A stretch of DNA of 64,000 nt from Candidatus Omnitrophota bacterium (lineage in GTDB: Bacteria; Omnitrophota; Gorgyraeia; Zapsychrales; Fredricksoniimonadaceae): assembly GCA_903901225.1 (NCBI GenBank), contig CAIUQE010000048.1, forward strand, positions 5,844 through 69,843, in the 5' to 3' direction. Each line of letters opens with the position of its first letter. The stretch's first letter is position 1. Positions 19,975 to 43,564 of the stretch are shown here, in pieces. A model generated the notes under the pieces. The model ran no database searches and was not told the origin of the DNA. It saw nothing but the letters and a program-made list of their open reading frames with translations. A program made the translations under genes and the position numbers.

Positions 19975-20067
19975 CGTAGGGGAGGCCCTTGTGTCCTCCC
20001 GTTAGTGAATGCGGTTATTTATAATACTCGTTAGGTTTATTGGGCCGACACAAGGTCGGCCCCTACG
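19975..20067 (+). promoter_or_regulatory. structured element: two GC-rich hairpins with mutually complementary cores, bracketed by an 8-nt outer inverted repeat
   Basis: Hairpin 1 is gggagg/cctccc (19980-20000). Hairpin 2 is gggccgac/gtcggccc (20042-20062). ccttgtgtc in hairpin 1 is the exact reverse complement of gacacaagg in hairpin 2. Outer arms are cgtagggg and cccctacg. No U-tract. Confidence 0.4.
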
Positions 20068-20212
20068 TTCTACGATATCCTCTCTGACTGTTAAGCATTA
20101 TATTTTCCCCCTACCCTTGACGCAGCCCTCTTTTATAGTATATATTTATTCTGTCGTCTTTCATTCGTTGACATTTTGGACTATATTTAAAAACCTGAAA
20201 ACAGGAGTTTTT

Positions 20213-23200: not shown

Positions 23201-24022
23201 AACGATGAAATTGTCGCGCCAATGTACGATACAGATCTTGTCGTTGCGCATAAAGAGTTGCATTTTAAAAAAGAAGACAGAAAGAAATGGGAAGATGTGG
23301 TCTTTCTTAACGAAACTTCATTGTTCAAACGATATATTGAATTAAGCGGCTCTCAGGAAGAATTTATGGCATTTGTTGATCGTTTTAATGTTAAAAATTT
23401 TAGCAAGAAGCGGTTGGCGCGTTTATTAAATGAGATCAACGCGCAGGTTAATTCCAATCAATATGATGAGGAAAAAAAGATTTTTCTTACAGGATGGAGA
23501 GGGCTGATCGAGCAATTTATTGAGAGTAAGCCCGTGAATGAAGTTTCTGCCCAAGTTAAAATAACAGAACGAGATGATTTTGTGCCTCCATACAGGAGGA
23601 GGATCGATGAGCTCATGCGTGAATCCTTTCCTTCGGGTCAAGATGTTAAGACAGATTCTGGCGAACCTCTTTATAGAAGGCAAATCAATAAACTTATGCA
23701 GAAGAAGAATCTCCCAGGCAGTGATAGTGCCGGGACAGTCGGGACTTCCCAAAAGGATATACAAGGCGGTATCGACCTCGGCCAGGGGGATTATCTCAAG
23801 GTCATTGGCACGGACGCGTCCGGTATGCCGAAGTTCGACCCGGCTCAGCTTATCCAGTTACAGAAGGACCTGCGCGGGATCGTTCCTGTGCCGGTTGGAG
23901 TTCCTCAGCCTGTGAATTTAAAGCCGCTCCTGGGGCTTGACCCCAACAGCGGCAACGAGAACCTCCAGACCGGCCAGCTTGACCCGGTGAAGGTTGAGGC
24001 TGAAGAGGGGGTTCCTTCCTGA
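20213..24022 (+). CDS. giant secreted protein of unknown function (1269 aa), compositionally mosaic
   Basis: Start at ATG 20213 with an aggag RBS. Signal peptide ends AQA. Central nt 21240-23700 is markedly AT-rich relative to both gene ends and to the window. No recognisable catalytic motif. Confidence 0.6.
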   Translation: MVRSIEELSCKALVRKSLSLFVMAAFILTSLVPPTYAQAVFNLPQPGEMIGLSGVYTPVVLKGVSIHPEDPLLFDFIVDNGNSDLKGQALTDETTKLVKYFLTGLAVPEKELWVNLSPVENNRIMADDLSHTDAGRDMLAQDYILKQITSTLMYPEKDLGRKFWDEIYSRVNAKFGTTDIPVDTFNKVWITPDVAEVYQHDGNAFVTKAHLKVMLEADYNALNGAAAPMADAGNSQTIDLARDVVREVILPVLEKEVNEGKNFAALRQIFNSLILAGWYKHALKDSLLNQVYAGTNKVAGIDIAEKNAREQVYAQYLQAYQKGVYNYIKEEFDSTTKESLPRKYFSGGAVLDRAMNPDIKNKIELGFDFFRKLGKALTVVPFQLVLKQAQNAVERTKNNIAGNKTSKYFDLPELSSDENKDLISAMNSPLGMSRFLNFDGVTSAWVMPTVLGILGIVAETAVVTLGQIPMDYKLVVKSVLPLYSGSALYTALYAYYRSAALNVVQDDERSRLEKLRAVIFLRKIKAREALWDVSNRAKSVVTKVAGWLAMDDRTLREMIQTGVSSFGVLNYSRMTNQERDALAGQLAANNNFEALAFLAIDPPTRTQALAFFHGWSNSKEDVLAIGKNSIFSIAEFSGGQKEQLFTTFRAVVNADYAQGDTLQKMYSKNLDHVRSVQMLIDNFKKKDWVRIELNALRDAIRDQIGFEGSSGNLSGNPELTAMILELQKLVDDKEFELSTGVQEDGAQESRKPASLEEVRLDKIFSKYSLSAAAFWDAYFYYVEKVIYQETKNQSFDRVTKFKSVGLRLLTPIIEKVAGIDSGVSIKKPGEIQSFLDEKIKEFNKDRSQTTDFAASPITLLFTALSAAEQREAAFIIDNVKHGLFGDAMAAVVSSDSRFSPAIKQLALWLLIQRSWKDPYSDLATDLIKQEIRYTMPELRAVNKDDFSPKDWNVMLTNKWIDELGVIQDEFKKITDYSKVHLDGVEDVDVQNICQTLNDEIVAPMYDTDLVVAHKELHFKKEDRKKWEDVVFLNETSLFKRYIELSGSQEEFMAFVDRFNVKNFSKKRLARLLNEINAQVNSNQYDEEKKIFLTGWRGLIEQFIESKPVNEVSAQVKITERDDFVPPYRRRIDELMRESFPSGQDVKTDSGEPLYRRQINKLMQKKNLPGSDSAGTVGTSQKDIQGGIDLGQGDYLKVIGTDASGMPKFDPAQLIQLQKDLRGIVPVPVGVPQPVNLKPLLGLDPNSGNENLQTGQLDPVKVEAEEGVPS

Positions 24023-28061: not shown

Positions 28062-28964
28062 TCAATACCTGTTCACGGAAAGGACATGAAGCACGACCGT
28101 AAAAATAAAAATGAACGTCAACGGCAGATGAAGCACGTGCCATAAATAAAAAACACGTTCATAGAAATTGAATTCCGCGACGGTAACCGCTTGCCGTAAA
28201 AAGCCATGGCTTTTGCGTTCCATCTGGGTAAGGATCAGTTGCCGGCGGCGGAGCGACCAGTGGCGCTTGAGGGCATGTTCCTGGAGGTAGGCGTCGATCG
28301 CGCGGCGTATCTCGTGCCGGGTCACGCGCGCCTCGTGGCTGACTTCCAGCGCCCTCCTGAAACTGACCGACAGCACCTTCGTCGGCGTGATGACTTTTGC
28401 CAGAAAAGAATCCAGTTCCTGCTTGATAAGGGGAATGTAAGTAAAATGATGATATGTTATTTCCTTTGATTGCGCGAAAGATTTTTGAAGGTTGACCAGT
28501 GTCGTCCTCTCCCCGTTCAAGCTTTGGCAGATCTTGATGTAAATATGTTTGCCCACCACCCCGCTGGCGGACACGATCAGGAGCGAGAACAAAGCGATGT
28601 TGCTGTTGAAGGCGCCGAGATGGAAATTGCAATGGTAAAGGATGAGCAACGGCCCGAGTAATCCCAGCGTCATGTGCAACTGGAACCACTGTTTCATTGT
28701 GCCGATAACAGTCAGCGTTTTGACGCGTTTGCGTAATGGGTAGACAAATAACAGGAGCATCATGCCGGTACCGACAAACCCGTAGATGAGGCCCTGGCCA
28801 TGTGTCGGTGTGATGAGCTCATGGCGGCTTAACCGCCACCCCGCGACCACCGCGACGACGAGGAATAAATTAAAAAGCGAAGGGCTTAATGCGTCATAGC
28901 GCTTAACGCCCCTGGCCCAGGCGGGCGCAAATCTCAGTGTCAAATTTTTAATGATATCCGGCAT
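28062..28964 (-). CDS. polytopic membrane protein of unknown function (first gene downstream of the cytochrome cluster)
   Basis: 4-5 predicted TM helices followed by a basic cytoplasmic tail. Same strand as the cytochrome genes, 9-nt gap from the upstream gene. Confidence 0.5.
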   Translation of the reverse strand: MPDIIKNLTLRFAPAWARGVKRYDALSPSLFNLFLVVAVVAGWRLSRHELITPTHGQGLIYGFVGTGMMLLLFVYPLRKRVKTLTVIGTMKQWFQLHMTLGLLGPLLILYHCNFHLGAFNSNIALFSLLIVSASGVVGKHIYIKICQSLNGERTTLVNLQKSFAQSKEITYHHFTYIPLIKQELDSFLAKVITPTKVLSVSFRRALEVSHEARVTRHEIRRAIDAYLQEHALKRHWSLRRRQLILTQMERKSHGFLRQAVTVAEFNFYERVFYLWHVLHLPLTFIFIFTVVLHVLSVNRY

Positions 28965-28973
28965 ATGGTCCTA

Positions 28974-31280
28974 CTAATAAATGATGTTCATCAGGAATTT
29001 CAAGAGGGTCATGTGCCTGGCAAGGAGGCGCTTCATTTCGGACGGGGCGGCATCCATGATCCTGACAGGCAAAAACGGGTTCGCTCCTTGCTTTAGAAGA
29101 GTCTTGACAATAACGCTGTTGTTGCGTTTGACGGCCAAAGCGAGCGCCGAGTTCCCCGCTTTGTTCATCGGTGTGACGTCCGCCCGATGGCCCAGTAACA
29201 GAGCGACCACATCCGCGGCGTCCGCGTCGACGGCCAGCATGAGGGGCGTATTGCCATCGTTGCTGGCCACATTGACAAGGGCTCCTGAGCTGACCAGCAA
29301 CAAAGCACACTCAATGCTGCCGGCGTGCGCGGCGAAAGACAAGGCCGTATGGCCTTCGTTGTTGCGGCGCGTTGTATCAGCTTTGCGCCCAAGAAGGAAT
29401 TTAACGGCCTCCTGGTGACCGTTCTCGGCGGCGATCATGAGCGCGGTGCGGCCCGACGCGTCGCTGGTGTTGATATCCATTTTTCGCGCGAGGAAGATAT
29501 CGATGAGATCAACGTCTCCCATCTTGACAGCGGCCAGGAACGGCCCCAATGCGCCGCCAGATGTCATGTCCCAGCTGGCCCCGGCATTTAAAAGCAACTT
29601 GGCAACGGGGCCGTGGCCGTTGGCAATGGCCTCAGCCAGGGCCTTGTCAAAAACGCGCGGGAATTTTTCGTGGCTGCCATATTCCTGGATAAGGCGGTTG
29701 ACCACGGCTTCATGGCCATTACCCGCCGCAAGGATCAAGGGCGAAGTTTTTTCCGGGTTGAGCCCGTCATTCACGCGTGCTCCGGCTTTGAGCAGGCGCG
29801 CGACAATATCCAGGTTGCCACGCCATGCGGCCCGGCTTAGCGGTGTCTGACCTTCTGTATCAGTCGCGTTGACATCAGCCCCCTGGAGGATCAAAAGGTC
29901 GACGATATCCTTTTCCCCTCGCCATACGGCCAGGATGAGGGGCGTTCTTGTCGCCGTGGTTTTTAAAAGAGAAGGATCGACCCCGGTAGACGGCAACATA
30001 ACTTTACCTGTGGCCAGGAGGGCCTCACTGACATCTTTATACCCTTTCAGTAAAGCGATGGATAAGGCATTCTCGTGGTTGCTGGTGGTCCGGGTGACAT
30101 CCGCTCCCTGGTTGATGAGGAACTTGACCATGGGAAGGTCGTCCTGCCAGGCTGCCAGCATCAAAGGTGTCAGGCCTTTAGTATTGGGGAAATCGATCTT
30201 GCTGCCGGCTTTTAGCAGCATTTCGGCTGACGTGAAGTCTTTCTTTTGCACCGCAAGCAGCAGCGCGTTGTCACCGTCATTACTGAGGATGTCGGGGTCA
30301 GCTCCTTTTCGGATGACGTCGGGAAGCCATGCCGTCAGGCCGCGCGCCACGGTTTCCATGAGAGCCGTGCGTCCGTTGCGGTCTTTGTAATTGATGTTCA
30401 GGCCAGCCGCGATGATCCGGTCAAAATCATCTTTGCGCGCGTTCCTGATCGCTGATAAGAAAAGTTCTTCGCGCGGCAGGTCAGGGTCGTTCTGGCCCCA
30501 CCGGGCCTGCTGTTGTATTGTTTTTAGCCTTTCGATCGCCGGACTGAACCCCTTACCCGCGGCTCTTGTGTACCAGGACAAGGCGTCCTGATAGCTTGAA
30601 GCGGTCCCTTTGCCAGTTTCGATGAGCTGTCCCAGCCGGTATTCAGATTCAAGGTCCCCTTGATCAGCAAGGGTTTTATAGAGGTTCACGGCTAGCGCGA
30701 AGTCTTTGTTGTTGACGGCTTGCATGGCCCTGTCATGCAGTTGTTGCTGCGATGAAAGTATGGCCGATGGCTTGAGGGCATTTATGGTTTCAGAGGAAGA
30801 TGTTTCTTTGATCCGAAGAGATGTCGTGCCGTTAATCTTGATATCCGCCAGGCGGTCGACAGCGGGGGTGTAATTCTGGCCGGCTGATTTTTTATACCAG
30901 GATAAGGCTTCGGGAATACCCTGAAGCACTCCCCGGCCGGATTCGAGCATGGAGGCGACATTGAATTGGGCTTTGGCGTTGCCTTTTTCAGCAGCCTTTT
31001 TATACCATGAAAAAGCCGTCGGGTAGTCTTTGGGAACTCCCTTCCCTGTCTCGTAAAGAGCGCCGAGTTGGTATAGCGCGTCGGGATCGCCCTGATCGGC
31101 CAGGCCGGAATATAGCGTAAGCGCAAGTGTGTAATCTCTCGCGCGGATCGCACGCCTGGCTTCATCCATTGGCGATGGCCTGGAGGGAATATCCTGGGCG
31201 CGGGCATCGAGCCCAACGCCCAGGATAAGTAACGGGATAACGGCGGATACACAACGCCGCCATGACCGAGCATGCGACAT
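28974..31280 (-). CDS. secreted Sel1-like-repeat plus ankyrin-repeat protein
   Basis: Signal peptide. Sel1-like repeats (YQLGALYETGKGVPKDY...; EYRLGQLIETGKG). About 13 ankyrin repeats (GRTALM..A...G..DVV..LL..GAD). Start chosen at the ATG at 31280 (MSHARS), which has a ggaga RBS. Confidence 0.7.
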   Translation of the reverse strand: MSHARSWRRCVSAVIPLLILGVGLDARAQDIPSRPSPMDEARRAIRARDYTLALTLYSGLADQGDPDALYQLGALYETGKGVPKDYPTAFSWYKKAAEKGNAKAQFNVASMLESGRGVLQGIPEALSWYKKSAGQNYTPAVDRLADIKINGTTSLRIKETSSSETINALKPSAILSSQQQLHDRAMQAVNNKDFALAVNLYKTLADQGDLESEYRLGQLIETGKGTASSYQDALSWYTRAAGKGFSPAIERLKTIQQQARWGQNDPDLPREELFLSAIRNARKDDFDRIIAAGLNINYKDRNGRTALMETVARGLTAWLPDVIRKGADPDILSNDGDNALLLAVQKKDFTSAEMLLKAGSKIDFPNTKGLTPLMLAAWQDDLPMVKFLINQGADVTRTTSNHENALSIALLKGYKDVSEALLATGKVMLPSTGVDPSLLKTTATRTPLILAVWRGEKDIVDLLILQGADVNATDTEGQTPLSRAAWRGNLDIVARLLKAGARVNDGLNPEKTSPLILAAGNGHEAVVNRLIQEYGSHEKFPRVFDKALAEAIANGHGPVAKLLLNAGASWDMTSGGALGPFLAAVKMGDVDLIDIFLARKMDINTSDASGRTALMIAAENGHQEAVKFLLGRKADTTRRNNEGHTALSFAAHAGSIECALLLVSSGALVNVASNDGNTPLMLAVDADAADVVALLLGHRADVTPMNKAGNSALALAVKRNNSVIVKTLLKQGANPFLPVRIMDAAPSEMKRLLARHMTLLKFLMNIIY

Positions 31281-31314
31281 TCCTGGATCTCCCATAAAAA
31301 GCACAATGCTATTA

Positions 31315-33540
31315 CTAAAAGATCAGCCTGTACCCGGTAGTAATGAACATTTCACGCGATTTGGACTTAATGCCCGACGCGATCTCGCTGACCCACTCTG
31401 TTCCGCCGTCAATTTCCAGTGTCGCGAACTTTGTCAGGCTGTACTCCAGGCGCATTTCGGGACGATAAGCCCAGCGTTCGTCGGCTGACGCTTTCGTGTC
31501 TTTAAAGTCCGTATGAAAACGCGGATTGATCCTGGTTTTGGCCGTCAGCGGGTAACGCGCGTTGAGGTTGAACGCGTAATCATAATATGTTTGCGCGTCG
31601 GTGAACACCAGGCCCGGGATCAAAGAGTCCTGCTCTTTGATAAGGTTGCTGATGTTCAGTTCGGTTGAATAGGTCCAGTCCGGCCCTGTTGAATTGGAGC
31701 CTTCAACCCCGCCGGACGTGATCATACCTTCGAGCGCGGAGACCGAGACTTCACCCGTCCACTGGAGATTTTCCCTGATGTCCTGGCTCACACCGGCCGT
31801 GGCCGACTTGCTGTTCGTCGAGCGGTCAATGGCCAGTTGGCGCAGCTCTTTTCTGGTATAAGTGGACTTAAGGTCGGATATATTCGCGACACCCATCCCC
31901 TGGATCGCGTTGTTCGTTGTGATCAAAGGCGACTTGCGGTAGTCTGCCGTCAAGCTGAGCGTGGTCTTTGTCGGCAAGGTGTAACGCATGTTGGTGGACG
32001 CGATATTGAGCCTCTGGAAATATGTATCATAATCGACAAGTGTGAAGAGCGATTTTTTCCGGTCAAAATACCTGACCTCGCCGCCCACCGCCTGGCGGTC
32101 CGTCAAGCCTGAATTCTGCTGGGCAATGGCAAAGGTATTGAATGTCCAGCGCGCTTTGGGGATCCCCCAGTCGATGTTGATCCCTTCGAACAGTTTCTGC
32201 GTGATCACCCGTGATATTTTCACGCTATCAACCGGATAACCGCTGACAACGTTGAGCTTTATCCCTGGGGTTATCTGCTTGGACACATGGACACCGTCAA
32301 AACGACCCAATACGCCGCCCGTTGAGAGTGTCTGGCGTCCGGCGCGCGCGTAGAAACCGAGTTTTTTGGACTTGATATCAACGGCCATGGCGCTCAAGCG
32401 ATTCTCATTCTTGCTGCCGCTGAGGTAATTCTGTGTTTTTCCACCGCTGAAACGCGCCTTGATCTCGAGGTCCCGGCTCTTCCACCGCCCGTTGATATCA
32501 ACGTCGCTGGCAAGGTTGTTCAACGTGTCGTTTTGTTTGCTTCCTTTGATCTTTAACATGTCCCTGTAATAGTACTGGGACGCGCTGCCGAAATACTGCG
32601 ATGACCACACGGACTCGGCGATCTTTCTGCTGGCGCCGGCAGGTTCCTTGAGAGGGGCCTGGGCGGCCTGGGTGGAGGTAACAACACCCGCCAGGCGTTG
32701 ACGGACACGGTCGGCGTCGGGGCCTTCGGGATATTCTTTAAGGTACTGGCTGTATTCAGCGGCCGCGTGGGCCAGTTGCTTGTTGCGTTCCCGCGCGACA
32801 CCCAACAATTCCCGCGCCTGTTTTTTCAATTCTCCTTGAGCTGTCAGAAGGACTTTCAAATATAGCTGGACCGCGGCGTCATAATCAGGCTTCACCAGCG
32901 CATCTTTGGCTTCCCGCATGAGCGAAGATTCAGGCTGGTCTAGAGGGGCTTCAGGCAATGCCAATTCCCCTGCTTTCCTGGCTTCGAGCCCGGCCCCCTG
33001 CGGCGGCTGGGCTGTAGTTACCCTGATGGTCACGGTTTTCATATCCGCGCTGTCATGCACATCGATCGTAACATCTTCGTTAAAATCGAGGATGATCTGC
33101 GGGTTTTCCGTGTCATTGCCATCGAAAGTGATATTGTTCAACGGGATGCCTGAGGAGTGATCCCAGGAAGGGATCAGGTTCGAATGGATGATGTCGAGAT
33201 CCTCCTGGTCCAGTTTTGAATGGTCGACGGTCTTTAACTGGATGTAGAACTTGCTCGCTTTCCCGGAGGGTGACGCATTCTTGAAGCGGTAGGAATAGAG
33301 CGAGTTCATCTCGATCTTGTAACCTTCGGAAATTGTCTGGATCTTGATATCTTCCATGGCGCCGGCATAAGCAGGTACGACGGAAAGTAACCAAATGCTT
33401 AGGAAGACTGTTAATGATCTGACGCCGTTGGCCAGTGTTTCTTGAAGAAAAGTTTTATTCACGAACGTTGAGCCGGATATATTTTTTATAGTGAGCACGA
33501 TAGTCTTTCTTACTTGTTGAATGTTCTTGTTGAGTGACAC
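31315..33540 (-). CDS. outer-membrane protein: N-terminal TPR-like helical region plus C-terminal beta-barrel
   Basis: Signal-peptide-like segment. Helical repeat region. Alternating amphipathic C-terminal half ending in the aromatic residue ...YRLIF. The listed start overlaps the upstream cytochrome by 31 nt; an alternative GTG at 33462 would avoid the overlap. Confidence 0.5.
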   Translation of the reverse strand: MSLNKNIQQVRKTIVLTIKNISGSTFVNKTFLQETLANGVRSLTVFLSIWLLSVVPAYAGAMEDIKIQTISEGYKIEMNSLYSYRFKNASPSGKASKFYIQLKTVDHSKLDQEDLDIIHSNLIPSWDHSSGIPLNNITFDGNDTENPQIILDFNEDVTIDVHDSADMKTVTIRVTTAQPPQGAGLEARKAGELALPEAPLDQPESSLMREAKDALVKPDYDAAVQLYLKVLLTAQGELKKQARELLGVARERNKQLAHAAAEYSQYLKEYPEGPDADRVRQRLAGVVTSTQAAQAPLKEPAGASRKIAESVWSSQYFGSASQYYYRDMLKIKGSKQNDTLNNLASDVDINGRWKSRDLEIKARFSGGKTQNYLSGSKNENRLSAMAVDIKSKKLGFYARAGRQTLSTGGVLGRFDGVHVSKQITPGIKLNVVSGYPVDSVKISRVITQKLFEGINIDWGIPKARWTFNTFAIAQQNSGLTDRQAVGGEVRYFDRKKSLFTLVDYDTYFQRLNIASTNMRYTLPTKTTLSLTADYRKSPLITTNNAIQGMGVANISDLKSTYTRKELRQLAIDRSTNSKSATAGVSQDIRENLQWTGEVSVSALEGMITSGGVEGSNSTGPDWTYSTELNISNLIKEQDSLIPGLVFTDAQTYYDYAFNLNARYPLTAKTRINPRFHTDFKDTKASADERWAYRPEMRLEYSLTKFATLEIDGGTEWVSEIASGIKSKSREMFITTGYRLIF

Positions 33541-36500
33541 GCGCCACAGTCTTGTGTGGTACGCGGATGATCATGCGACTTTCCAGTGATCTGGATGCCG
33601 TCATGCGATTGTCCATCATGGCAGCTGGAACAAGTTCCGGATGCATCTGAATGGTTGAATTTGCTGCTTGAAACATTCCAACTTGAGGTCAAATGGCAAT
33701 TGCCGCAATTATTGGTGGTATTTAAATGGGAAGCTCCTTTTCCTGTAGCTTTTGATCCGTTATGGCACGAGGAACATGTTCCCGTGACCGCTGTATGATC
33801 AACGCGTGCTACCGGTGTCCAGGCCACGGTCGAGTGGCAACTGTTGCAGGTGCTCGCGGAACTGATGTGGTTAGCCGATTTGCCTGTAGCGGATGATCCG
33901 TTGTGGCAGGTGGAACATGCCGCAGAAACGCCGCCATGGTCAAAAACCGCGGGGGTCCAGGCATTGGTGTTGTGGCAGGCGTCACAGCTCGTCGATGTCG
34001 GGATGTGCGTGGCGTTCTTACCCGGAGCCGTCGAGCCGTTATGGCAACTGGAGCATGACCCTGTCACCGAGGTGTGGTCTACCCTTGAGACAGAGCTCCA
34101 GGAAACGGTCGTATGGCAGTTATTGCAAATATTGTTCGTCGTGATATGGGTCGGAGGCTTACCGCTCGCGCTTGTGCCATTATGGCAATTCGCGCATGAA
34201 CCGCTCACCGCGTTGTGGTCCATCCGCGTCACGGGGGTCCAGGCCGAGGTCGAATGACAGCTGTCGCAGGTCGTTGCCGAAGCAATATGGTTTGGCGATT
34301 TCCCGGTGGCCGTGGTGCCATTATGGCAGCTTGAACAAGAGCCGCTGACCCGCGAGTGATCCAGGCGTGACACGGCCCAGCTCGATGTTGTGTGGCAGGA
34401 GTCACAGGACGCTGATGTTGCGATATGGTTCCCCGGCTTCCCTGTCGCCGTTGAGCCATTGTGACAGTTCGCGCAGGTGCCGGTCGCCGCGGCATGGTCC
34501 ATGCGGGTGACGGGCGACCAGGCTGAGGTTGAATGGCAACTGTCGCAGGTTGTTGCGGAGGCGATATGATTGGCCGGCTTCCCCGAGGCGGTCGTGCCGT
34601 TATGGCAGCTGGAACATGTGCCGCTGACCTTGGAGTGGTCCAGACGTGACACGGTCCAGCTCGACGTTGTATGGCAGGCGTCACAGGCCGCGGATGTGGT
34701 GATGTGATTTGCAGGTTTTCCTGTCGCCGCCGACCCGTTGTGGCAGTTGGCACATGTGCCGGTCACCGCGGCATGGTCCATGCGGGTGACGGGCGTCCAG
34801 GCTGTGGTCGAATGACAGCTGTCGCAGGTCGTCGCGGAGGCGATGTGGTTCGCCGATTTTCCCGGTGCCGTTGTGCCGTTATGGCAGCTGGAACACGTCC
34901 CGCTGAGCTTGGAATGGTCCAGCCGGGACACGGTCCACGATGATGTCGTATGGCAGGCGTCACAGGCGGCGCTTGTGGCAATGTGCGTGCCCGGCTTGCC
35001 TGTGGCGGCTGATCCATTATGGCACGCGGCGCACGCTCCTGTCACCGCCGCGTGATCAAGCCTCATCACGGGTGACCACGCCGTTGTCGAATGGCAACTG
35101 TTACATGTTGCCGCGGAACTTATGTGCGTGGGAGATTTTCCGGTCGCGGTCGTTCCGTTGTGGCAGCTTGAACAACTGCCGCTTACCTTGCTGTGGTCCA
35201 GCGATGTCACGGCCCAGTTGTTGGTGCCATGGCAGGCGTCACAGCTGGCGCTCGTGGCGATATGTGTGGGCGATCTTCCCGTAGCGGCAGACCCGTTGTG
35301 GCAGCTCGCGCAGGTTCCTGTCGCCGCCGTATGGTCCATCCTTGCCAGCGGGGTCCAGGCTGATGTGGTGTGACAACTGTTGCAGGTTGTTGCGGCAGCG
35401 ATGTGCGTTGGCGATTTTCCTGTCGCTGTAGTACCGTTATGACAACTCGCGCAGGTCCCGCTGGCCTTGGTGTGGTCAAATGAAGATACCGCCCAACTGT
35501 TGATGCTGTGGCATGAATCACAGCTGGCGCTTGTGGCAATGTGGGTGGCGGTCTTGCCCGGCGCCGTTGATCCGTTGTGGCATGATGCGCATGTTCCGCT
35601 AACGGACGCATGGTCCATTTTTGTCAAGGGGGTCCAGGCCGAGGTTGAATGGCAACTGTTACAGGTCGTCGCGGAACTGATATGCGTCGCGGACTTGCCC
35701 GTCGCGGACGTCCCGTTATGGCAGCTCGCGCAGGTCCCGGTGACCTTGTTATGGTCAAGTGAGGCCGCTGCCCAAGTGGTTGTGCTGTGACAGGAATCAC
35801 ACGTGGCACTGGTGGCGACATGTTTGGCAGGCTTGCCTGTGGAGATGGTCCCGTTATGGCAGCTTGCGCAGGTCCCGGTCACGGCCGCGTGGTCCATTTT
35901 TGTCAACGGCGTCCAGGCTGATGTGGCGTGGCAACTGTTACAGGTCGTCGCGGTGCTGATATGTGTGGCTGACTTACCTGCCGCGGACGTCCCGTTATGG
36001 CAACTGGCGCACGCGCCGCCGCCGGTCTTGTTGTGGTCAAATGATGATACAGCCCAGCTGTTGACGCTGTGGCAGGCATCGCAGCCGGTTGATGTGGCAA
36101 TATGCCGGGCCGGCTTCCCTGTCGCGGCGCGCCCGTTATGGCAATTCGCGCACGTGCCGATACCGGCCGCATGATCCATCTTGGTCAGGGGTGTCCAGCC
36201 GGTTGTCGTATGGCAACTGTTGCAGGTTGCCGTCGAACTTATGTGTGACGGAGATTTTCCCTGCGCGGTCGTCCCGTTGTGGCAACTGGCGCATGTCCCG
36301 GATGCTCTTTTGTGGTCGAAAGAAGCCACGGCCCAGCTGTTGGTGGTGTGACACGTGTCGCAGGCATCGTTGGTCAGGATGTGACGGGACGGTTTTCCTG
36401 TCGCGGTCGTCGTATTGTGGCAACTGGCACATGTCCCTGATGCCCTGGAGTGATCGAACTTTTTGACGGCCCAGCTGTTGGTGGTATGGCACACTTCACA

Positions 36501-37058
36501 GCCATCGGTCGTGACAATATGGCTTATCGGCCGGCCCGTGGCATTCTGGCCGTTATGGCAGCGGGCACAAACGCCGATGACCTTACTGTGATCAAATTTA
36601 ACCTTGGTCCAGCTGGAAGTGACATGGCAGGTGTCACAGTTGGCAACTGTCGGGACGTGCCCGATGTCCTTCCCGCCCGCTGTTGTCCCGTTGTGGCAGT
36701 TGAGGCATGAGCCGATCACCGCGTTATGGTCAACCGAAACATTGCTGCTGAAATTTGTTGATGAATGGCAATCCTGGCAGCGTTCGCTGCTCCTGATGTG
36801 GTTGACAGGCTTTGACATGGCCTGGATGCCCGCGCCTGAAGTGTGGCAGCCGTCACAGGTGTTGGGCGTGTTCTTGAAGCGGCCTTGCGCGTGGCACGTC
36901 TCACATGTCAGCCCGGCATGGGCCCCGGTGATGGCAAAGCCCGTCGTGTTGTGGTCGAACGTTCCGGTATCAGCCTGTGCTCCTGCAGGAAGCAGCGCCA
37001 GGACGAAAGCCAGCGCCCATGTCATGAAAGCCAAAAGGTTTATTCGTTTATCGCTCAT
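33510..37058 (-). CDS. secreted giant multiheme c-type cytochrome (49 CxxCH motifs in 1182 aa)
   Basis: Signal peptide ends AQA. I counted 49 CxxCH motifs. Most of the protein is built from tandem ~47-aa diheme repeats. ATGA overlap with the upstream 27-heme gene. Confidence 0.85.
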   Translation of the reverse strand: MSDKRINLLAFMTWALAFVLALLPAGAQADTGTFDHNTTGFAITGAHAGLTCETCHAQGRFKNTPNTCDGCHTSGAGIQAMSKPVNHIRSSERCQDCHSSTNFSSNVSVDHNAVIGSCLNCHNGTTAGGKDIGHVPTVANCDTCHVTSSWTKVKFDHSKVIGVCARCHNGQNATGRPISHIVTTDGCEVCHTTNSWAVKKFDHSRASGTCASCHNTTTATGKPSRHILTNDACDTCHTTNSWAVASFDHKRASGTCASCHNGTTAQGKSPSHISSTATCNSCHTTTGWTPLTKMDHAAGIGTCANCHNGRAATGKPARHIATSTGCDACHSVNSWAVSSFDHNKTGGGACASCHNGTSAAGKSATHISTATTCNSCHATSAWTPLTKMDHAAVTGTCASCHNGTISTGKPAKHVATSATCDSCHSTTTWAAASLDHNKVTGTCASCHNGTSATGKSATHISSATTCNSCHSTSAWTPLTKMDHASVSGTCASCHNGSTAPGKTATHIATSASCDSCHSINSWAVSSFDHTKASGTCASCHNGTTATGKSPTHIAAATTCNSCHTTSAWTPLARMDHTAATGTCASCHNGSAATGRSPTHIATSASCDACHGTNNWAVTSLDHSKVSGSCSSCHNGTTATGKSPTHISSAATCNSCHSTTAWSPVMRLDHAAVTGACAACHNGSAATGKPGTHIATSAACDACHTTSSWTVSRLDHSKLSGTCSSCHNGTTAPGKSANHIASATTCDSCHSTTAWTPVTRMDHAAVTGTCANCHNGSAATGKPANHITTSAACDACHTTSSWTVSRLDHSKVSGTCSSCHNGTTASGKPANHIASATTCDSCHSTSAWSPVTRMDHAAATGTCANCHNGSTATGKPGNHIATSASCDSCHTTSSWAVSRLDHSRVSGSCSSCHNGTTATGKSPNHIASATTCDSCHSTSAWTPVTRMDHNAVSGSCANCHNGTSASGKPPTHITTNNICNNCHTTVSWSSVSRVDHTSVTGSCSSCHNGSTAPGKNATHIPTSTSCDACHNTNAWTPAVFDHGGVSAACSTCHNGSSATGKSANHISSASTCNSCHSTVAWTPVARVDHTAVTGTCSSCHNGSKATGKGASHLNTTNNCGNCHLTSSWNVSSSKFNHSDASGTCSSCHDGQSHDGIQITGKSHDHPRTTQDCGACHSTRTFNK
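33940..36450 (-). repeat. in-frame tandem array of ~141-bp coding repeats (about 17-18 units, several nearly identical)
   Basis: Repeating protein unit CASCHNGTxATGKxxxHIATSAxCDxCHxTxxWTPVTRMDHAAVTGT. Adjacent double units (~280 bp) are almost identical at the DNA level. Confidence 0.8.
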
Positions 37059-39025
37059 TTACTATCCCTGATGAAATATTTCTTGAACGTATCAACGGCA
37101 TGACACAGGCCGCAATTCTCGCCGAATTGTCCTTTATGGACGTCATCGTTCTCATGGCACGCGAAACAATCCGATGAAGTATGCCGGCCTTTTGCGAGGG
37201 GTTTGTTATGGCACGCTGCGCATTTGATCCCCGCGTGCGGCCCCTCAAGTTTGTATTTGGTCTGTCGGTCATGGTCGAATTGCCACAACTTCCAGCCGTT
37301 GGGATTGTGGCATTGGCCGCAATCCGTCCCCAAAGCGCTTTTATGCGTATCTTGCCTGGCGTGACATGAACCACAATCAGGCTGGGTGTCTTGATAAGCG
37401 GCCGAATGATGACATTCTGTGCATGCCAGGACAGCATGCTGGCCAATGAGCGGAAAATGAGTCAGGTCATGGTCGAATTTTGACACATCCTGCCATTTCC
37501 CGGCATTATGGCAACGCTGACAATCGCGCGCGGACGCGCTTTTGTGGACATCATCTTTTTGATGACAACTGGCGCAATCTGTCGGCAGCCTCGTCCCGTG
37601 TTCCAGCGGGGCGTTATGGCAAGCGCGGCATTTTAACGTTTCGTGTGCTTCAGTCAACAAAAATTTTGTCATAATATTGTGCTTAAAATCCCACTGTTTC
37701 CAGCTGTCAGCCGTATGGCATTGCGCGCAATCTTCACCGAGGGCACCTTTATGCGTGTCGTCTTTTTCATGGCAGGAAGAACACGCGCGTTTAGCGTCTT
37801 TGAACGCCGCGCTAAGATGGCATGTGTTACAAGCCAGAACAATATGCGGGCCTTTTAACTGGAAACGAGTCCTGTCGTGGTCAAATTTAACGTTAACTTT
37901 CCAGCCCGCATCGTTGTGGCAGGACTGGCAGTCCTTCCCTTCCTGCCCTTTGTGCACATCCTGCGCCTGATGGCAGGACAGGCAAGCCTTGTCGATTTTC
38001 ATATCAGCCGAAGCTATCCTGTGACAGGCCTCACAATCGGCAGCCCTATGTTTCCCTGACAACAAGAAATGCGTGTCGCGGTCATGGTCAAAGGTGACCT
38101 TTTTCCATCCGGATGTGGTGTGGCACTGTTCGCATTTGGTCCCGTTCTTGGCTTTATGGGTGTCGTCCAGTTTATGGCACGCCAGACAATTTGTCGGAGT
38201 GGTTGTCGTAAAAACATTCGCGGCATGGCAGGCCGCGCATGCCGTCTGGAGGTGCTTTCCCGTCAAGGCGAACTTGGTCCCTTTGTCATGGTCAAAAGAG
38301 ATGTTCTTCCATCCACGGGTTGAATGGCACTGTTCACAACGGGCATCACGGGGGCTGTTATGGACATCATTGATCAGATGGCACGCCACGCAAGCCACGG
38401 CTGTTTTGGTGTATTTTTCATTAACATGGCAGATATTGCAGGCGACGTTCACATGCTTCCCGTTCAGTGGGAAATTTGTTTTGGCATGAACAAAGAGCGC
38501 GTTTTTCCAGCCGGTGTCATTGTGGCATCGGGCGCAATCTTTACCAAGTTCTTCATGATGATGATCATTCTTGGCGTGACAGCTGTAACAATCTTCGGGA
38601 GCAGCCCGGTAAGGGCGTCCGGGTTGATGGCATGAGCGGCATGTCACGCTCGAAAGAGCGTGGGCCCCATGGAGCGCGAAGTCTGTCCGGTCATGCTTGA
38701 AGGTTTCTTTATCCAGACGGACAATGTCATACGCGCGGCCTTTATGTTCCGTGTGGCAGGCCTTGCAAGCCTTATCTTCCTCGCCCGCGCGCCGGCCGTG
38801 GAGGCCTTGATGGAGCGTGATGTCAGAGGCCACATCCTTGTGGCAGTCCAGGCATATCAGATCCTGTTTGTTCTTGTCGAAAGCAGAATGGCATTTTGGA
38901 CACTGCCCTTCGTAGGCCGCGTGGGCCCTGGTCAATGGCCCGGGCATGACGAACAGTTCGATGAGATTAACGCGATAAAGTTGGAACAGCGCTATCAGTA
39001 TGAGCACGACCAGAGCGCTGATCAC
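37055..39025 (-). CDS. membrane-anchored multiheme cytochrome, c7/c3-polymer-like (27 CxxCH motifs)
   Basis: N-terminal TM anchor. 27 CxxCH motifs, roughly three per ~70 aa, resembling triheme c7-like modules. GTG start per ORF track. Confidence 0.8.
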   Translation of the reverse strand: MISALVVLILIALFQLYRVNLIELFVMPGPLTRAHAAYEGQCPKCHSAFDKNKQDLICLDCHKDVASDITLHQGLHGRRAGEEDKACKACHTEHKGRAYDIVRLDKETFKHDRTDFALHGAHALSSVTCRSCHQPGRPYRAAPEDCYSCHAKNDHHHEELGKDCARCHNDTGWKNALFVHAKTNFPLNGKHVNVACNICHVNEKYTKTAVACVACHLINDVHNSPRDARCEQCHSTRGWKNISFDHDKGTKFALTGKHLQTACAACHAANVFTTTTPTNCLACHKLDDTHKAKNGTKCEQCHTTSGWKKVTFDHDRDTHFLLSGKHRAADCEACHRIASADMKIDKACLSCHQAQDVHKGQEGKDCQSCHNDAGWKVNVKFDHDRTRFQLKGPHIVLACNTCHLSAAFKDAKRACSSCHEKDDTHKGALGEDCAQCHTADSWKQWDFKHNIMTKFLLTEAHETLKCRACHNAPLEHGTRLPTDCASCHQKDDVHKSASARDCQRCHNAGKWQDVSKFDHDLTHFPLIGQHAVLACTECHHSAAYQDTQPDCGSCHARQDTHKSALGTDCGQCHNPNGWKLWQFDHDRQTKYKLEGPHAGIKCAACHNKPLAKGRHTSSDCFACHENDDVHKGQFGENCGLCHAVDTFKKYFIRDSK

Positions 39026-39175
39026 CAGGTTAAAACTTTTTTTCTTTCCTGCGGATTCGATAATAACTCCTTTTCGAAAAAAATATCTGTGTAAAAGATA
39101 CTATATATAATTAACAAAGCAAATTTATTTTATGAAATTTTGGGATCAAAACAACGAAGAGGAGCTACTGTCTGG

Positions 39176-39589
39176 TCAGGGTTTAGAATGATCGGCCGGG
39201 CCGGTGTTGTGAAGGATATAACCAAGATTTTGTCCGGTCCTGGAATAATCCAGGGCGGTCATTTTTTTGATGCTTTGGATCACATTGTTGTCGCGCGTGT
39301 AGTCGATCCTCACCCTGTCCCCCGTTTGATAACCGGGTGAGTTGTCCAGGTAAATGAAACTCCTGACGGTACGCGTGTTCTCATCATAAATATCAATGCG
39401 GTTGCGACCCATGGCCCTGATCGTGCCAAAGATCATGTCGGTACTTTTGAGTTGTTGGAAGGTTTGGTCTGTTGTTGCTGCCTGGCCGGGGAAAACAAGA
39501 GCAGCTGAAAACAAGAGGACGCAAAAAACCCCGGACCTTGCATGTTTTGGCAGAACAGCGTCAAGAAGAACGTGTGCTGTAAGTTCCAT
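39176..39589 (-). CDS. small secreted hypothetical protein (137 aa)
   Basis: Signal-peptide-like N-terminus. No recognisable motif. Confidence 0.4.
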   Translation of the reverse strand: MELTAHVLLDAVLPKHARSGVFCVLLFSAALVFPGQAATTDQTFQQLKSTDMIFGTIRAMGRNRIDIYDENTRTVRSFIYLDNSPGYQTGDRVRIDYTRDNNVIQSIKKMTALDYSRTGQNLGYILHNTGPADHSKP

Positions 39590-39612: not shown

Positions 39613-40308
39613 CTATTTGCCGTACACTGTCTGTAATTGCGCGACTTTGGGGAACTCCGCGTAGAATTCACCCTGGGGACCCACGAAGCCGGCCCCTGAC
39701 CTCTTGATCGTTACCGCCGTATACCCGCCACTTTTGGTGTTGGGGATATTGATCGTGAACACCTCATCGGCCGCGGGAGTTGCCGCTGATGCCGTTACAG
39801 ATGCCGCTGGGGCTGTTGCAACCGGCTGGGGCTGTGTTATCGATGCCTGAACGATGACAGGGGCCGGCGCGGGTTGTGTGACAATGACCGGTGCCTGTGT
39901 CATTGTCGCAGGTTGCTGAACGACCTGGTATCCATAACGCGTGTAAATGTAATAAGTGCCGTTATCGACGTAGTACGTGATACCGTTGATCACAATGGGC
40001 CGGTATTCCGGAGGGATCGCGGCCACCACGGCGCCGATCGGCGGGGTTACAAGGACAAAGTCACCGCCTATTTTGGTGTAATAAAGCCCATCATAATAGT
40101 AATATCTCGCTTCCCTTGTCCGCACAACAAAGGCGTCGTCGGGAACAAAGGTCAAATGAAGGCCAAACGAAGGGCGCTCGTGATAGCGATAATAATGATG
40201 GTCTTCGTGACGACCATTGTCCCTGGCGAATGACAACGAAGGCGGTGCCAATAATGACAATCCCATAATTAGCGCCGACACCTTCGATATTTCTTTTATA
40301 CTGAACAT
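39613..40308 (-). CDS. secreted Tyr-rich protein, paralog A
   Basis: Signal peptide. Y-rich core (ARYYYYDGLYYTKIGGDFVLV...INGITYYVDNGTYYIY). Pro/Ala/Thr/Val-rich linker. Conserved C-terminus GPQGEFYAEFPKVAQLQTVYGK shared with 40885..41490. Confidence 0.55.
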   Translation of the reverse strand: MFSIKEISKVSALIMGLSLLAPPSLSFARDNGRHEDHHYYRYHERPSFGLHLTFVPDDAFVVRTREARYYYYDGLYYTKIGGDFVLVTPPIGAVVAAIPPEYRPIVINGITYYVDNGTYYIYTRYGYQVVQQPATMTQAPVIVTQPAPAPVIVQASITQPQPVATAPAASVTASAATPAADEVFTINIPNTKSGGYTAVTIKRSGAGFVGPQGEFYAEFPKVAQLQTVYGK

Positions 40309-40346
40309 GGCGAACCTCTTGTTTTGAGCTGGCAGGTCCAGTCCTG

Positions 40347-40808
40347 TTACCTGGTCTGCATGGTTTCAATGACCCGCTGACTTACACCTTCCCTGCGCAG
40401 ATAACTTATGTCATCAGCCGTGAGGGCATACGTTGAATTAGTGGTCCTGATTCTGGCAATGATCTCATCCCCCGACAAGCCCTGCTGTGTCCAATCAACG
40501 ATCTGCTGCATCGTTATTTGGGAGATCGGAGTGGCGCGTGACGCGACCGGGACCTGTCTGGGCGTAGCGTTCTTGTTCTCGATCTGTGACCCCGCAATGC
40601 CACCCGCGGCCGCGCCCAAAGCACCGCCGATCAAAGCGCCGCCGATGGCATGGTCGCCTTTTTGCTGATGCCCCACTACGCCGCCGACAACAGCGCCGAG
40701 TATGCCGCCGATCCCGGCGCCCTCAGCGACCTTGGTCTGGTTCTCGGCGCAGCCGGACAATGCCAGCGCGTAGACCGCAATGATTAGTAGATAGACTTGA
40801 TTCTTCAT
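40347..40808 (-). CDS. glycine-zipper lipoprotein
   Basis: Lipobox LALSGCA. Glycine zipper GIGGILGAVVGGVVG...GALIGGALGAAAGGIAG. Small globular C-terminal domain. Confidence 0.55.
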   Translation of the reverse strand: MKNQVYLLIIAVYALALSGCAENQTKVAEGAGIGGILGAVVGGVVGHQQKGDHAIGGALIGGALGAAAGGIAGSQIENKNATPRQVPVASRATPISQITMQQIVDWTQQGLSGDEIIARIRTTNSTYALTADDISYLRREGVSQRVIETMQTR

Positions 40809-40884
40809 TCCCTGCCTCCATGTTTGATGATTTAATTATCAAAGGCCGCCATGTGACCTGATGGGCCGCATTTTAGCACTTTTT

Positions 40885-41490
40885 TCATTTTGTATACATA
40901 ACACGTAATTGCTCGACCTTGGGAAATTCATTATAAAATTCTCCCTGGGGTCCGATAAACCCGCTGCCTGACCGCGTGAGATTTACAGCCGTGAACCCGC
41001 CCTGGGAATTTGGCACATTGACGGTAATGGCTCCCTGGGCGCTGGCAGGAGCAGTTGCCGGGGTGATCACTGTAGGCGGCGCGACAACAACAGCGGGCTG
41101 ATAAATGACCGGTTGAGGAACGACCTGATAACCGCCCGCGACGGGAACATAATAAGTCCCGTTATACTCAAAATATGCGGTGCCGTTGACAATGTACTGC
41201 CGGGATCCGGCGGGAATAGCGTAAACGATCGCGTTAACAGGGGCCGTTTCAACGATATAGGTGTAAGAAACGGGTGTGTAATAACGGGGCGGATAATACC
41301 TGTGGGCATAATAGTCCCTCCAGGGGTCATAATCCCTGAAAGAGCCCCTTCCACGATGGTCCGCGACGCCGATATCTATCCCCCATGAAACACCGGCATG
41401 GGCTGTTGTTGGCGTGAAGGACAAGATTAGGAAGGCCAGGATGCTCACACACAAGGACACGGGAAAATTCAATTTGTTCGAGCTATACAT
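40885..41490 (-). CDS. secreted Tyr-rich protein, paralog B
   Basis: Start at ATG 41490 (MYSSNK) with a ggagg RBS. Signal peptide. Same architecture and C-terminal GPQGEFYNEFPKVEQLRVMYTK motif as paralog A. Confidence 0.55.
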   Translation of the reverse strand: MYSSNKLNFPVSLCVSILAFLILSFTPTTAHAGVSWGIDIGVADHRGRGSFRDYDPWRDYYAHRYYPPRYYTPVSYTYIVETAPVNAIVYAIPAGSRQYIVNGTAYFEYNGTYYVPVAGGYQVVPQPVIYQPAVVVAPPTVITPATAPASAQGAITVNVPNSQGGFTAVNLTRSGSGFIGPQGEFYNEFPKVEQLRVMYTK

Positions 41491-41568
41491 AGGTACCTCC
41501 ACAGGATCGTTTGCGTTCCTGTTAATTAGACAACAACACACCTAAAAAAGTTCCCATAAAATAGATCA

Positions 41569-42544: not shown

Positions 42545-43564
42545 TCACGCGACATCCCGGGCATGCGCGCGGGTGAAATCAATGACCTGGCGCATCATGG
42601 TGACCGTTTCGACAGGATATTTCCCTGCCGCGGTTTCGGCGGATAGCATCAGAAAATCCGAGCCATCGAGCATCGCGTTGGCGACATCCGTCACCTCAGC
42701 GCGCGTGGGCCTGTAGTGCTCGGTCATGCTTTCCAGCATCTGGGTCGCGGTGATCACGAGCTTCTTCGCGCGATTGCATTTATGGATGATCTTCTTCTGG
42801 ATCACGGCTATCTCGTAGATGGGCAACGACACGCCCATGTCGCCGCGGGCGACCATGATCCCGTCGCTGACCGCGAGGATCTCGTCAATATTCCTGATCC
42901 CCTCCCTGTTCTCGATCTTGGCAATGATCTTGCAGGCAGGGCTCCTGTCTTTGACAGATTCTTTGAAATTAAGGATATCCTCCTTGCGCCGGACAAAGGA
43001 CTGCGCGATATAATCCGCCTTGTTCCTGACGCAGAACTCGATATTTTCCTTGTCCCTGCCGGTCAAGCCGTCAAAACCCAGATCTACATCGGGTATATTG
43101 ATCCCCTTATGCTCCTTCAGGACACCGGGAACGAGAACTTCCGTCTTAAGGATGTTGCGGTTACCCGAAAGGACTCTTAGCGCGATATTGCCGTCGTCAA
43201 TATAAATGAGCGACCCCTTGCCGATAGCCGTCAGGTCGCCTTGATAGTCAAAAGGGACCGCGTTCTCGATGCAAGGCGCCGCGGCATTGCTCAGAACGAG
43301 CGACTGGTTTTTCCTTAAGAGGATATCCTGATCAAGTTTTCCTATCCTGATCCTGTAGCCCTCGAGATCCCCCAGGAACCGCAATCGCCTAGAGTATTGC
43401 TTATTTAGGGCGCGGATACGCTCGATGACCTTCGCGTGACCGGCAAGATTGCCATGAGAGAAGTTCAGGCGGGCAACATCCATCCCGGCCAGCAACATTC
43501 GTTTCAAGACCGAAAGAGTGTTACTCATCGGCCCGATCGTGCAAATAATGCCTGTTTTACCCAT
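42545..43564 (-). CDS. pyruvate-kinase-like protein lacking the C-terminal regulatory domain (339 aa)
   Basis: PK barrel motifs [18 protein letters not shown] and MVARGDMGV. The protein ends at the end of the A domain. Confidence 0.6.

Follow-up and report, generated by a model that had tools for sequence, protein, structure and literature searches.

What is the function of two very large multihaem cytochromes that are encoded together with an outer-membrane barrel protein, a repeat-rich secreted protein and a polytopic membrane protein in a bacterium of the phylum Omnitrophota? The question is raised by positions 28,062 to 39,025 of a 64,000-nucleotide stretch of DNA (hereafter the window) from a Candidatus Omnitrophota bacterium (assembly GCA_903901225.1, contig CAIUQE010000048.1, positions 5,844 to 69,843 of the forward strand), in which five minus-strand genes, here called A to E, follow one another closely. 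Judged by sequence, this cluster is a member of PCC3, a family of predicted extracellular electron-transfer systems, with A, B, C and E corresponding to it gene for gene. The assignment follows from the published features of the family, which are found again in the window, and from a bridge of homology through a locus in Amphritea. The PCC3-type cluster of this Omnitrophota host most likely provides a series of haems along which electrons pass through the entire cell envelope. The components are as follows.

37055-39025, minus strand: gene A, 656 aa, 27-haem cytochrome c, the 'periplasmic' multihaem cytochrome of PCC3
33510-37058, minus strand: gene B, 1182 aa, secreted 49-haem repeat cytochrome, the 'extracellular' multihaem cytochrome of PCC3
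31315-33540, minus strand: gene C, outer-membrane protein, the 'porin' of PCC3, with a probable start at 33498 or 33453
28974-31304, minus strand: gene D, secreted Sel1-like and ankyrin-repeat protein, with a probable start at Met9 (31280)
28062-28964, minus strand: gene E, 300-aa protein, PCC3's inner-membrane protein
39026-39175, minus strand: AT-rich intergenic region upstream of A, a putative promoter and ribosome-binding region

Relation to PCC3 and other known systems

PCC3 was first described by He et al. 2017 (PMC5566968) as a combination of a porin, two cytochromes and an inner-membrane protein. In their description, the 'extracellular' cytochrome has 34 haems in the median and at most 85, in repeats rich in T, S, A and G (the published range for this second cytochrome is 10-85), the 'periplasmic' cytochrome has a median of 21 haems, and the inner-membrane protein of about 300 aa has five helices, with SGXXG on the fourth transmembrane (TM) helix and WX3HX13H on TM3 and TM5, and would, as they propose, bind two b-haems. 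Hoover et al. 2023 (PMC9900912) give 21, 24 or 27 haems for the periplasmic subunit, and the supplementary repeat tables for PCC3 list repeats of about 66 aa in that protein, which is described as having about 26 aa per haem. These features recur in the window. A carries 27 haems in nine trihaem repeats of about 67 aa, or 24.3 aa per haem; B carries 49 haems at a period of 23-24 aa and is 50.7% T, S, A and G; and E, at 300 aa, has W93...H111, S134GVVG and W275...H293. C, B, A and E are, moreover, contiguous on one strand and make up the four components described for PCC3.

The link by homology to a named PCC3 runs via the Amphritea locus (L053), which is homologous to the window at A (3e-151), B (0), C (1e-116) and E (3e-36), and whose haem counts of 21 and 63 are those published for the PCC3 of Amphritea atlantica (He et al. 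2017, PMC5566968). The PCC3 examples of Sideroxydans lithotrophicus (Slit_0867-0870 and Slit_1446-1449), like that of Leptothrix, were matched by published description only; Slit_1446-1449 runs inner-membrane protein, periplasmic cytochrome, extracellular cytochrome, porin, which in the present lettering is E-A-B-C. The first-pass annotation of this DNA had implied that the layout was an undescribed one, and that view has to be given up, given that A, B, C and E match a described family gene for gene (PMC5566968; PMC9900912). Likewise, its suggestion of an electron conduit is reasonable but not new, the same hypothesis having already been published for PCC3.

The contrast that it drew with the canonical Mtr and Geobacter Pcc layouts does stand. 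MtrCAB/MtoAB (Shewanella; PDB 6r2q) follows the same logic of a multihaem cytochrome joined to an outer-membrane barrel, and the repeats of B match the MtrA/DmsE model; however, the window lacks a 10-haem MtrA-type protein of about 300-350 aa, and the 26 strands of MtrB-type porins set these apart from C. From published PCC3 the window departs in gene order (A-B-C-D-E, as against inner-membrane protein, cytochrome, cytochrome, porin), in the phylum of its host, Omnitrophota, and in the strand number of its porin, for which AlphaFold2 predicts 22, whereas up to 42 have been published from PRED-TMBB. Further, the published description comprises four genes, and the texts searched mention neither D, nor a sixth gene, F, that accompanies the module in other genomes, nor the beta-sandwich and TPR module of the porin. 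He et al. 2017 (PMC5566968) make no mention of ankyrin, Sel1, TPR, tetratricopeptide, FAD, ferredoxin or pyridine nucleotide, and a 2025 Sideroxydans paper makes none of ankyrin or tetratricopeptide; a literature search found no paper specifically on PCC3 or multihaem extracellular electron transfer in Omnitrophota. Relative to the PCC3 literature searched, D as a fifth gene, F as a sixth, the beta-sandwich and TPR module of the porin, its 22 strands and the Omnitrophota host all appear to be new.

Gene spacing and the upstream region

All five minus-strand open reading frames (ORFs) are confirmed at the coordinates originally assigned to them. A and B overlap by 4 nt, C and D are 10 nt apart (34 nt if D begins at Met9), and D and E are 9 nt apart. 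The tight packing that had been reported, at 4 to 35 nt, is therefore seen, but one element of it, a 31-nt overlap between B and C, is probably an artefact of choosing the longest ORF; public gene calls place the start of C at GTG 33498, 11 nt past the stop of B. Similarly, the proposal of an AT-rich promoter upstream of A holds as regards composition, the 150 nt before the gene having 29.3% GC as against 55.3% for the cluster, but a consensus scan of 39026-39175 found no match to the sigma-70 consensus. Promoter and terminator counts across the region equal the expectation from shuffled sequence, and internal terminators are not supported.

The two cytochromes

Gene A was initially described as an anchored, c7-polymer-like cytochrome with 27 haems, and so it proves to be. 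It has exactly 27 CXXCH motifs and no CX3CH or CX4CH; the spacing within its trihaem units is 16-18, 18 and 33 aa, and it matches Pfam Cytochrome_C7 (PF14522) across five stretches (6.4e-30). Its one N-terminal hydrophobic helix is without an AXA cleavage site, and A is apparently anchored by this helix in uncleaved form, whereas most proteobacterial homologues of A have cleavable signal peptides. The start of the gene may lie further upstream than annotated. The GTG at 39025 has no Shine-Dalgarno sequence, while AAGGAG at 39072-39067 lies 5 nt before an in-frame ATC at 39061 (36 nt upstream of the GTG), and this ATC may serve as a non-canonical start; the hydrophobic helix would then be preceded by ESAGKKKSFNL, a basic n-region of the usual kind.

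Tandem c7-like trihaem domains are also found in the c7 polymers of Geobacter, GSU1996 (12 haems) and GSU2210, the latter with 27 haems as in A, a likeness that concerns a shared domain type and not a demonstrated orthology. A differs from these polymers in being encoded with a porin, an inner-membrane protein and a second giant cytochrome; a phmmer search of the PDB (E<=1e-3) returned no solved relative of A, GSU1996 included. Homologues of A with 21, 23 or 24 haems stand in the order E-A-B-C in other genomes.

B was described as a secreted 49-haem repeat cytochrome, which agrees with its exactly 49 CXXCH motifs (one per 23-24 aa, giving roughly 24 aa per haem; CX3CH and CX4CH do not occur) and its Sec-type signal peptide. 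It matches Pfam Cytochrome_C7 (1e-67) and holds 51 further histidines; given that A and B each have at least one additional histidine per haem, bis-histidine ligation is possible throughout both proteins. Against the DmsE/MtrA decahaem model B scores 195.6 bits (cut-off 192.2), a score attained only by summing 11 partial stretches, and among solved structures it finds only a weak match, to the ACIII pentahaem subunit. A homologue of B lies in an Omnitrophota metagenome-assembled genome (MAG), HK-STAS-OMNI-4 (L007, 3419-9865), where a protein of 2148 aa carries 89 CXXCH motifs and so exceeds 85, the largest number quoted by He et al. 2017 (PMC5566968).

Some public gene calls treat these cytochromes poorly. 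The contig of the window occurs in several public metagenome assemblies, and in three loci with the same sequence as window positions 37055-38964 (L001, L002 and L004) the 27-haem gene is replaced by short antisense ORFs; in another locus (L087) both cytochrome genes are so replaced. Open frames also run antisense to B and give an appearance of conservation in 18-24 loci, which is an artefact of annotation. An apparent variation in the repeat number of A, which is 403 aa long or absent in public calls, was likewise rejected as a failure of gene calling, the contigs being 100% identical to the window. As antisense ORFs take the place of cytochrome genes, surveys that rely on such public gene calls will undercount PCC3.

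The outer-membrane protein

C was modelled by AlphaFold2 with 71 homologues (pLDDT 86). Pfam gives only sub-threshold TPR/YfiO matches, and the model divides the protein, after its signal peptide, into three parts.

33016-33357, minus strand: residues 62-175, periplasmic beta-sandwich, seven strands in the AlphaFold2 model
32671-32928, minus strand: residues 205-290, five TPR-like helices in the AlphaFold2 model
31318-32604, minus strand: residues 313-741, 22-strand barrel in the AlphaFold2 model, ending in Phe and including a helical insert at 542-572

The helical repeats and the C-terminal barrel ending in Phe had been recognised at the outset and are visible in the model, which puts the strand number of the barrel, for which a structure prediction had been proposed, at 22. 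The N-terminal beta-sandwich is an addition to the earlier description, as is a disordered linker that the model places between the TPR-like helices and the barrel. At the position of the beta-sandwich, homologues of C carry SPOR (PF05036) or AMIN (PF11741) domains; an AMIN identity for the N-terminal domain of the window's own C was considered and not retained, since the similarity is not significant. The structural neighbours of C are the barrels of TonB-dependent receptors and the TPR of YbgF/CpoB, at 9-13% sequence identity. Unlike TonB-dependent receptors, C has no plug domain or TonB box, and its gene context is wholly different.

Genes D and E

D had been read as a combination of Sel1-like and about 13 ankyrin repeats, and this is supported by matches to Pfam Sel1 (3.4e-25), Ank (1e-62) and Ank_2 (2.7e-68). 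The Sel1-like part has three W[YF]..A cores in two blocks, and the ankyrin part has 11 clear cores at a spacing of about 33 aa, with space for 12-13 repeats. A signal peptide ends in ...GLDARA|QD.

E, formerly no more than a polytopic membrane protein, can be specified further as a probable transmembrane carrier of electrons with two b-type haems, on account of two motifs and their invariant histidines.

28632-28688, minus strand: residues 93-111, first WX3HX13H motif (TM3), with invariant His
28086-28142, minus strand: residues 275-293, second WX3HX13H motif (TM5), with invariant His

The four histidines H97, H111, H279 and H293 are invariant in 52 sequences of the family, which comprises 3474 clusters at 50% identity (E<=1e-3), and the SGxxG motif is present as SGVVG at residue 134. 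The AlphaFold2 model is all-helical (pLDDT 84.9), with helices consistent with five TM segments. From its basic loops and the positive-inside rule, H97 and H279 would lie near the cytoplasmic face and H111 and H293 near the periplasmic face, with a basic helical insert of 120 aa placed on the cytoplasmic side by the same predicted topology. Pfam yields no match for E, Ferric_reduct included. A parallel is the FRD superfamily (NOX/FRE; MsrQ and Fre of E. coli; PMC12525009, PMC5676040), which has two HX13H pairs on two TM helices, as predicted for E. E differs from that superfamily in its five helices, in the basic cytoplasmic insert and in the missing Ferric_reduct match, and the match of folds is weak.

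Conservation of the module and a sixth gene

Homologues of C number at least 668 at E<=1e-3. A scan of one genome per species of the Genome Taxonomy Database confirmed at least 498 relatives, and 80 loci were retrieved and compared; the counts that follow refer to these. The only genes of the window that are conserved around the relatives of C are A to E themselves, which argues that the linkage of the five genes is not due to chance and bears out the co-occurrence that had been proposed as a check. C is present in all 80 and B in 70; A is counted in 64, cross-hits with B among them; E is seen in 37, D in 28, and C, B, A and E are linked together in 36. The flanking genes of the window (DUF6515, glycine-zipper lipoproteins, SSB) are not conserved with the module.

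The common order is E-A-B-C, with 21-24 haems in A and 17-89 in B, and it recurs in Gamma- and Alphaproteobacteria, Thermodesulfobacteriota and Omnitrophota; one locus in the Verrucomicrobiota has the same genes in a different order. The order A-B-C-D-E was seen, among the loci compared, only in the window and in one Omnitrophota MAG, which is the closest relative among the loci listed. The hosts include sulfur or iron lithotrophs (Chromatiaceae, Ectothiorhodospiraceae, Thiohalobacterales, Sedimenticola), and the module is also common in heterotrophs (Cellvibrionaceae, Marinagarivorans, Emcibacter, Caulobacteraceae) and occurs in Omnitrophota. Among the 37 loci with E, 28 also have a D-like protein of matching architecture, and six of the nine exceptions have less than 1.4 kb of upstream flank; D, unmentioned in the PCC3 papers searched, is accordingly confirmed as a conserved part of the module.

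The tightest partnership is that of B and C, as is evident from loci with full 10-kb flanks that hold the B-C pair only. These loci (L011, L030 and L085, from a Nitrospinaceae genome, a Desulfuromonadales genome and a deltaproteobacterial MAG) have 7, 29 and 15 haems, respectively, their 10-kb surroundings are free of genes like A, E, D or F, and their B-C pair looks like a minimal form of the system. Elsewhere, a stand-alone gene for a response regulator stands immediately before the module in two loci of unrelated arrangement, A-B-C-D-E (L086, 3846-4217) and F-D-E-A-B-C (L088, 2030-2410); the window has no such gene upstream.

F occurs in 28 loci (L010, L012, L014, L021, L047, L088 and about 22 others), always beside D, either in the arrangement F-D-E-A-B-C or with F and D paired and in divergent orientation to E-A-B-C. 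In this protein of about 435 aa, an N-terminal membrane helix and the basic residues after it are followed by a ferredoxin domain of the 2x[4Fe-4S] type and by an FAD/NAD(P)H domain that resembles thioredoxin reductase and YpdA. As it carries no Tat signal, F should face the cytoplasm, if its sequence is a reliable guide. There is a parallel with Fre and MsrQ, in that most PCC3 loci encode in F a separate, probably cytoplasmic NAD(P)H flavoenzyme beside E; F departs from the FRD superfamily in its two 4Fe-4S clusters and its membrane anchor, and the window lacks it.

Proposed mechanism and direction of electron flow

How might electrons cross the envelope along such a chain? E, in the inner membrane, would hold two b-haems between its four invariant histidines, one near each face, and would thereby convey electrons across the membrane. 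A would be fixed to the inner membrane through its N-terminal helix and, with nine trihaem units, would make a wire of about periplasmic length: the four c7 units of GSU1996 measure 12 nm (Pokkuluri 2011, as cited in PMC10138318), and on that scale, taken from a secondary citation, nine units would span about 27 nm. B, as an MtrA-like haem polymer, would sit in or thread the 22-strand barrel of C and project outside the cell, a placement suggested by the resemblance of its repeats to MtrA, a cytochrome that lies inside its porin. C would be tied to the cell wall and to periplasmic partners by its beta-sandwich and YbgF-like TPR, and D might serve both of the very long cytochromes in the periplasm, as a chaperone or a scaffold.

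As to direction, flow outwards from the cell is favoured, with about even confidence, and uptake is given appreciably less. Three considerations lead to this preference. With F as neighbour, F and E would make a two-part system of the NOX-like or MsrQ/Fre-like kind; Sideroxydans ES-1 lowers the expression of both its PCC3 clusters on Fe(II), from which the authors of that work conclude that they have no role under their conditions; and the window encodes a 2-oxoacid:ferredoxin oxidoreductase, typical of anaerobes. A bolder and distinctly tentative proposal is that PCC3 is the output wire of a split NOX-like enzyme and not an iron oxidase. F would oxidise NAD(P)H or ferredoxin and pass electrons to E, and from there they would travel along the periplasmic wire to the giant cytochrome held in the barrel, with D as dedicated periplasmic scaffold, in a module of six genes; the F-less form in Omnitrophota would draw on another donor, and its role might be to connect the cell electrically with a host or partner.

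Several observations weigh against the picture of an outward conduit. The case for a direction leans chiefly on F, yet neither the 64-kb window nor the nearest Omnitrophota relative listed has this gene, and no F-E fusion was found, the long members of the E family bearing SPOR or TPR N-termini instead. The extracellular place of B is a prediction, its sequence showing no lipobox or recognisable surface-export signal. Many hosts of the module are iron or sulfur lithotrophs, which fits uptake, and PCC3 itself was still called predicted in papers up to June 2026.

The most serious rival is the original model of He et al. 2017 (PMC5566968), in which PCC3 works inwards, from extracellular Fe(II), minerals or a partner cell through B and C to A, E and the quinone pool. 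PCC3 first came to light in iron oxidisers, 59% of Sideroxydans genomes contain it (PMC5566968; PMC9900912), the lithotrophic families listed above supply many of the loci, the gene for the inner-membrane protein of one PCC3 copy in Sideroxydans CL21 rises during iron oxidation, and a protein with two b-type haems could react with quinones. Yet both ES-1 clusters fall on Fe(II), the module is also common in the heterotrophs and Omnitrophota noted above, and the presence of an NAD(P)H/FAD/FeS enzyme, F, as conserved neighbour points more to a donor in the cytoplasm than to a quinone sink. This inward route is regarded as rather doubtful. More improbable is a purely periplasmic role, with the cytochromes as an electron store or redox buffer and C as an envelope-tethering protein through which no cytochrome passes. 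The ordinary Sec signal peptide of B, unaccompanied by any surface-export signal, would suit it, as would the periplasmic electron storage proposed for the c7 polymers of Geobacter and the N-terminal modules of the C family (SPOR, AMIN, YbgF-like TPR), which are elements of cell-wall or Tol-Pal type. It would leave unexplained, however, why, of the 54 loci with enough flank, 50 have a multihaem ORF of B type immediately before the barrel gene, also where A and E are lacking, what other cargo a 22-strand barrel without a plug domain could have, and why B resembles a cytochrome that resides inside a porin.

The notion that C is a housekeeping or polysaccharide-export TPR-barrel (of BamD/LptD or BcsC/PgaA/AlgE type) standing near cytochromes by chance has a helical-repeat domain and a barrel in one protein to recommend it and is otherwise barely credible. 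Its YfiO score is 18.2 bits against a cut-off of 25 and its TIGR03302 (BamD) score 28.8 against 81.4, and the multihaem neighbour just described likewise speaks against it, in keeping with the initial judgement that an ordinary housekeeping protein was not at issue. The TPR-barrels of polysaccharide exporters (BcsC, PgaA, AlgK/AlgE) have 16-18 strands, whereas 22 are predicted here, and the neighbourhood shows conservation of A, B, D, E and F but of no synthase, Bam or Lpt gene; scores, strand count and above all neighbourhood in practice rule out both identities. A chain of haems reaching from the inner membrane to the outside of the cell remains the reading that most likely accounts for the cluster.

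Implications

PCC3 is one of the most widespread predicted systems of extracellular electron transfer and holds the most haem-rich proteins known. Taken alone, the window adds little to this, namely one more member, in a new phylum and with a new gene order. The comparison across genomes, on the other hand, sharpens the parts list of PCC3, with six genes in linkage, a barrel predicted to have 22 strands and to be attached to the cell wall, and a membrane protein whose four histidines are invariant, and the NOX-like proposal offers a concrete and testable alternative to the idea of an iron oxidase.

Other features of the window

No tRNA or Rfam element was found in the window. Directly upstream of the cluster lie a 137-aa ORF without a family (39176-39589) and a run of small minus-strand genes (39613-41541) that encodes two DUF6515 proteins and a glycine-zipper lipoprotein. 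A 1337-aa ORF without a Pfam match (20009-24022, plus strand) occupies the stretch of lowest GC (42-45% at 21-24 kb, as against 54% overall) and may represent foreign DNA or a fast-evolving surface protein. The best named matches of HtpG (51139-52980) are 76-81% identical and all belong to Candidatus Omnitrophota/Omnitrophica, which places the window in an uncultured member of that phylum. Finally, the window has two pyruvate-kinase genes on the minus strand, one for a 339-aa form consisting of the barrel only (42545-43564) and the other for a 593-aa form with a C-terminal PEP-utilising mobile domain (60130-61911).

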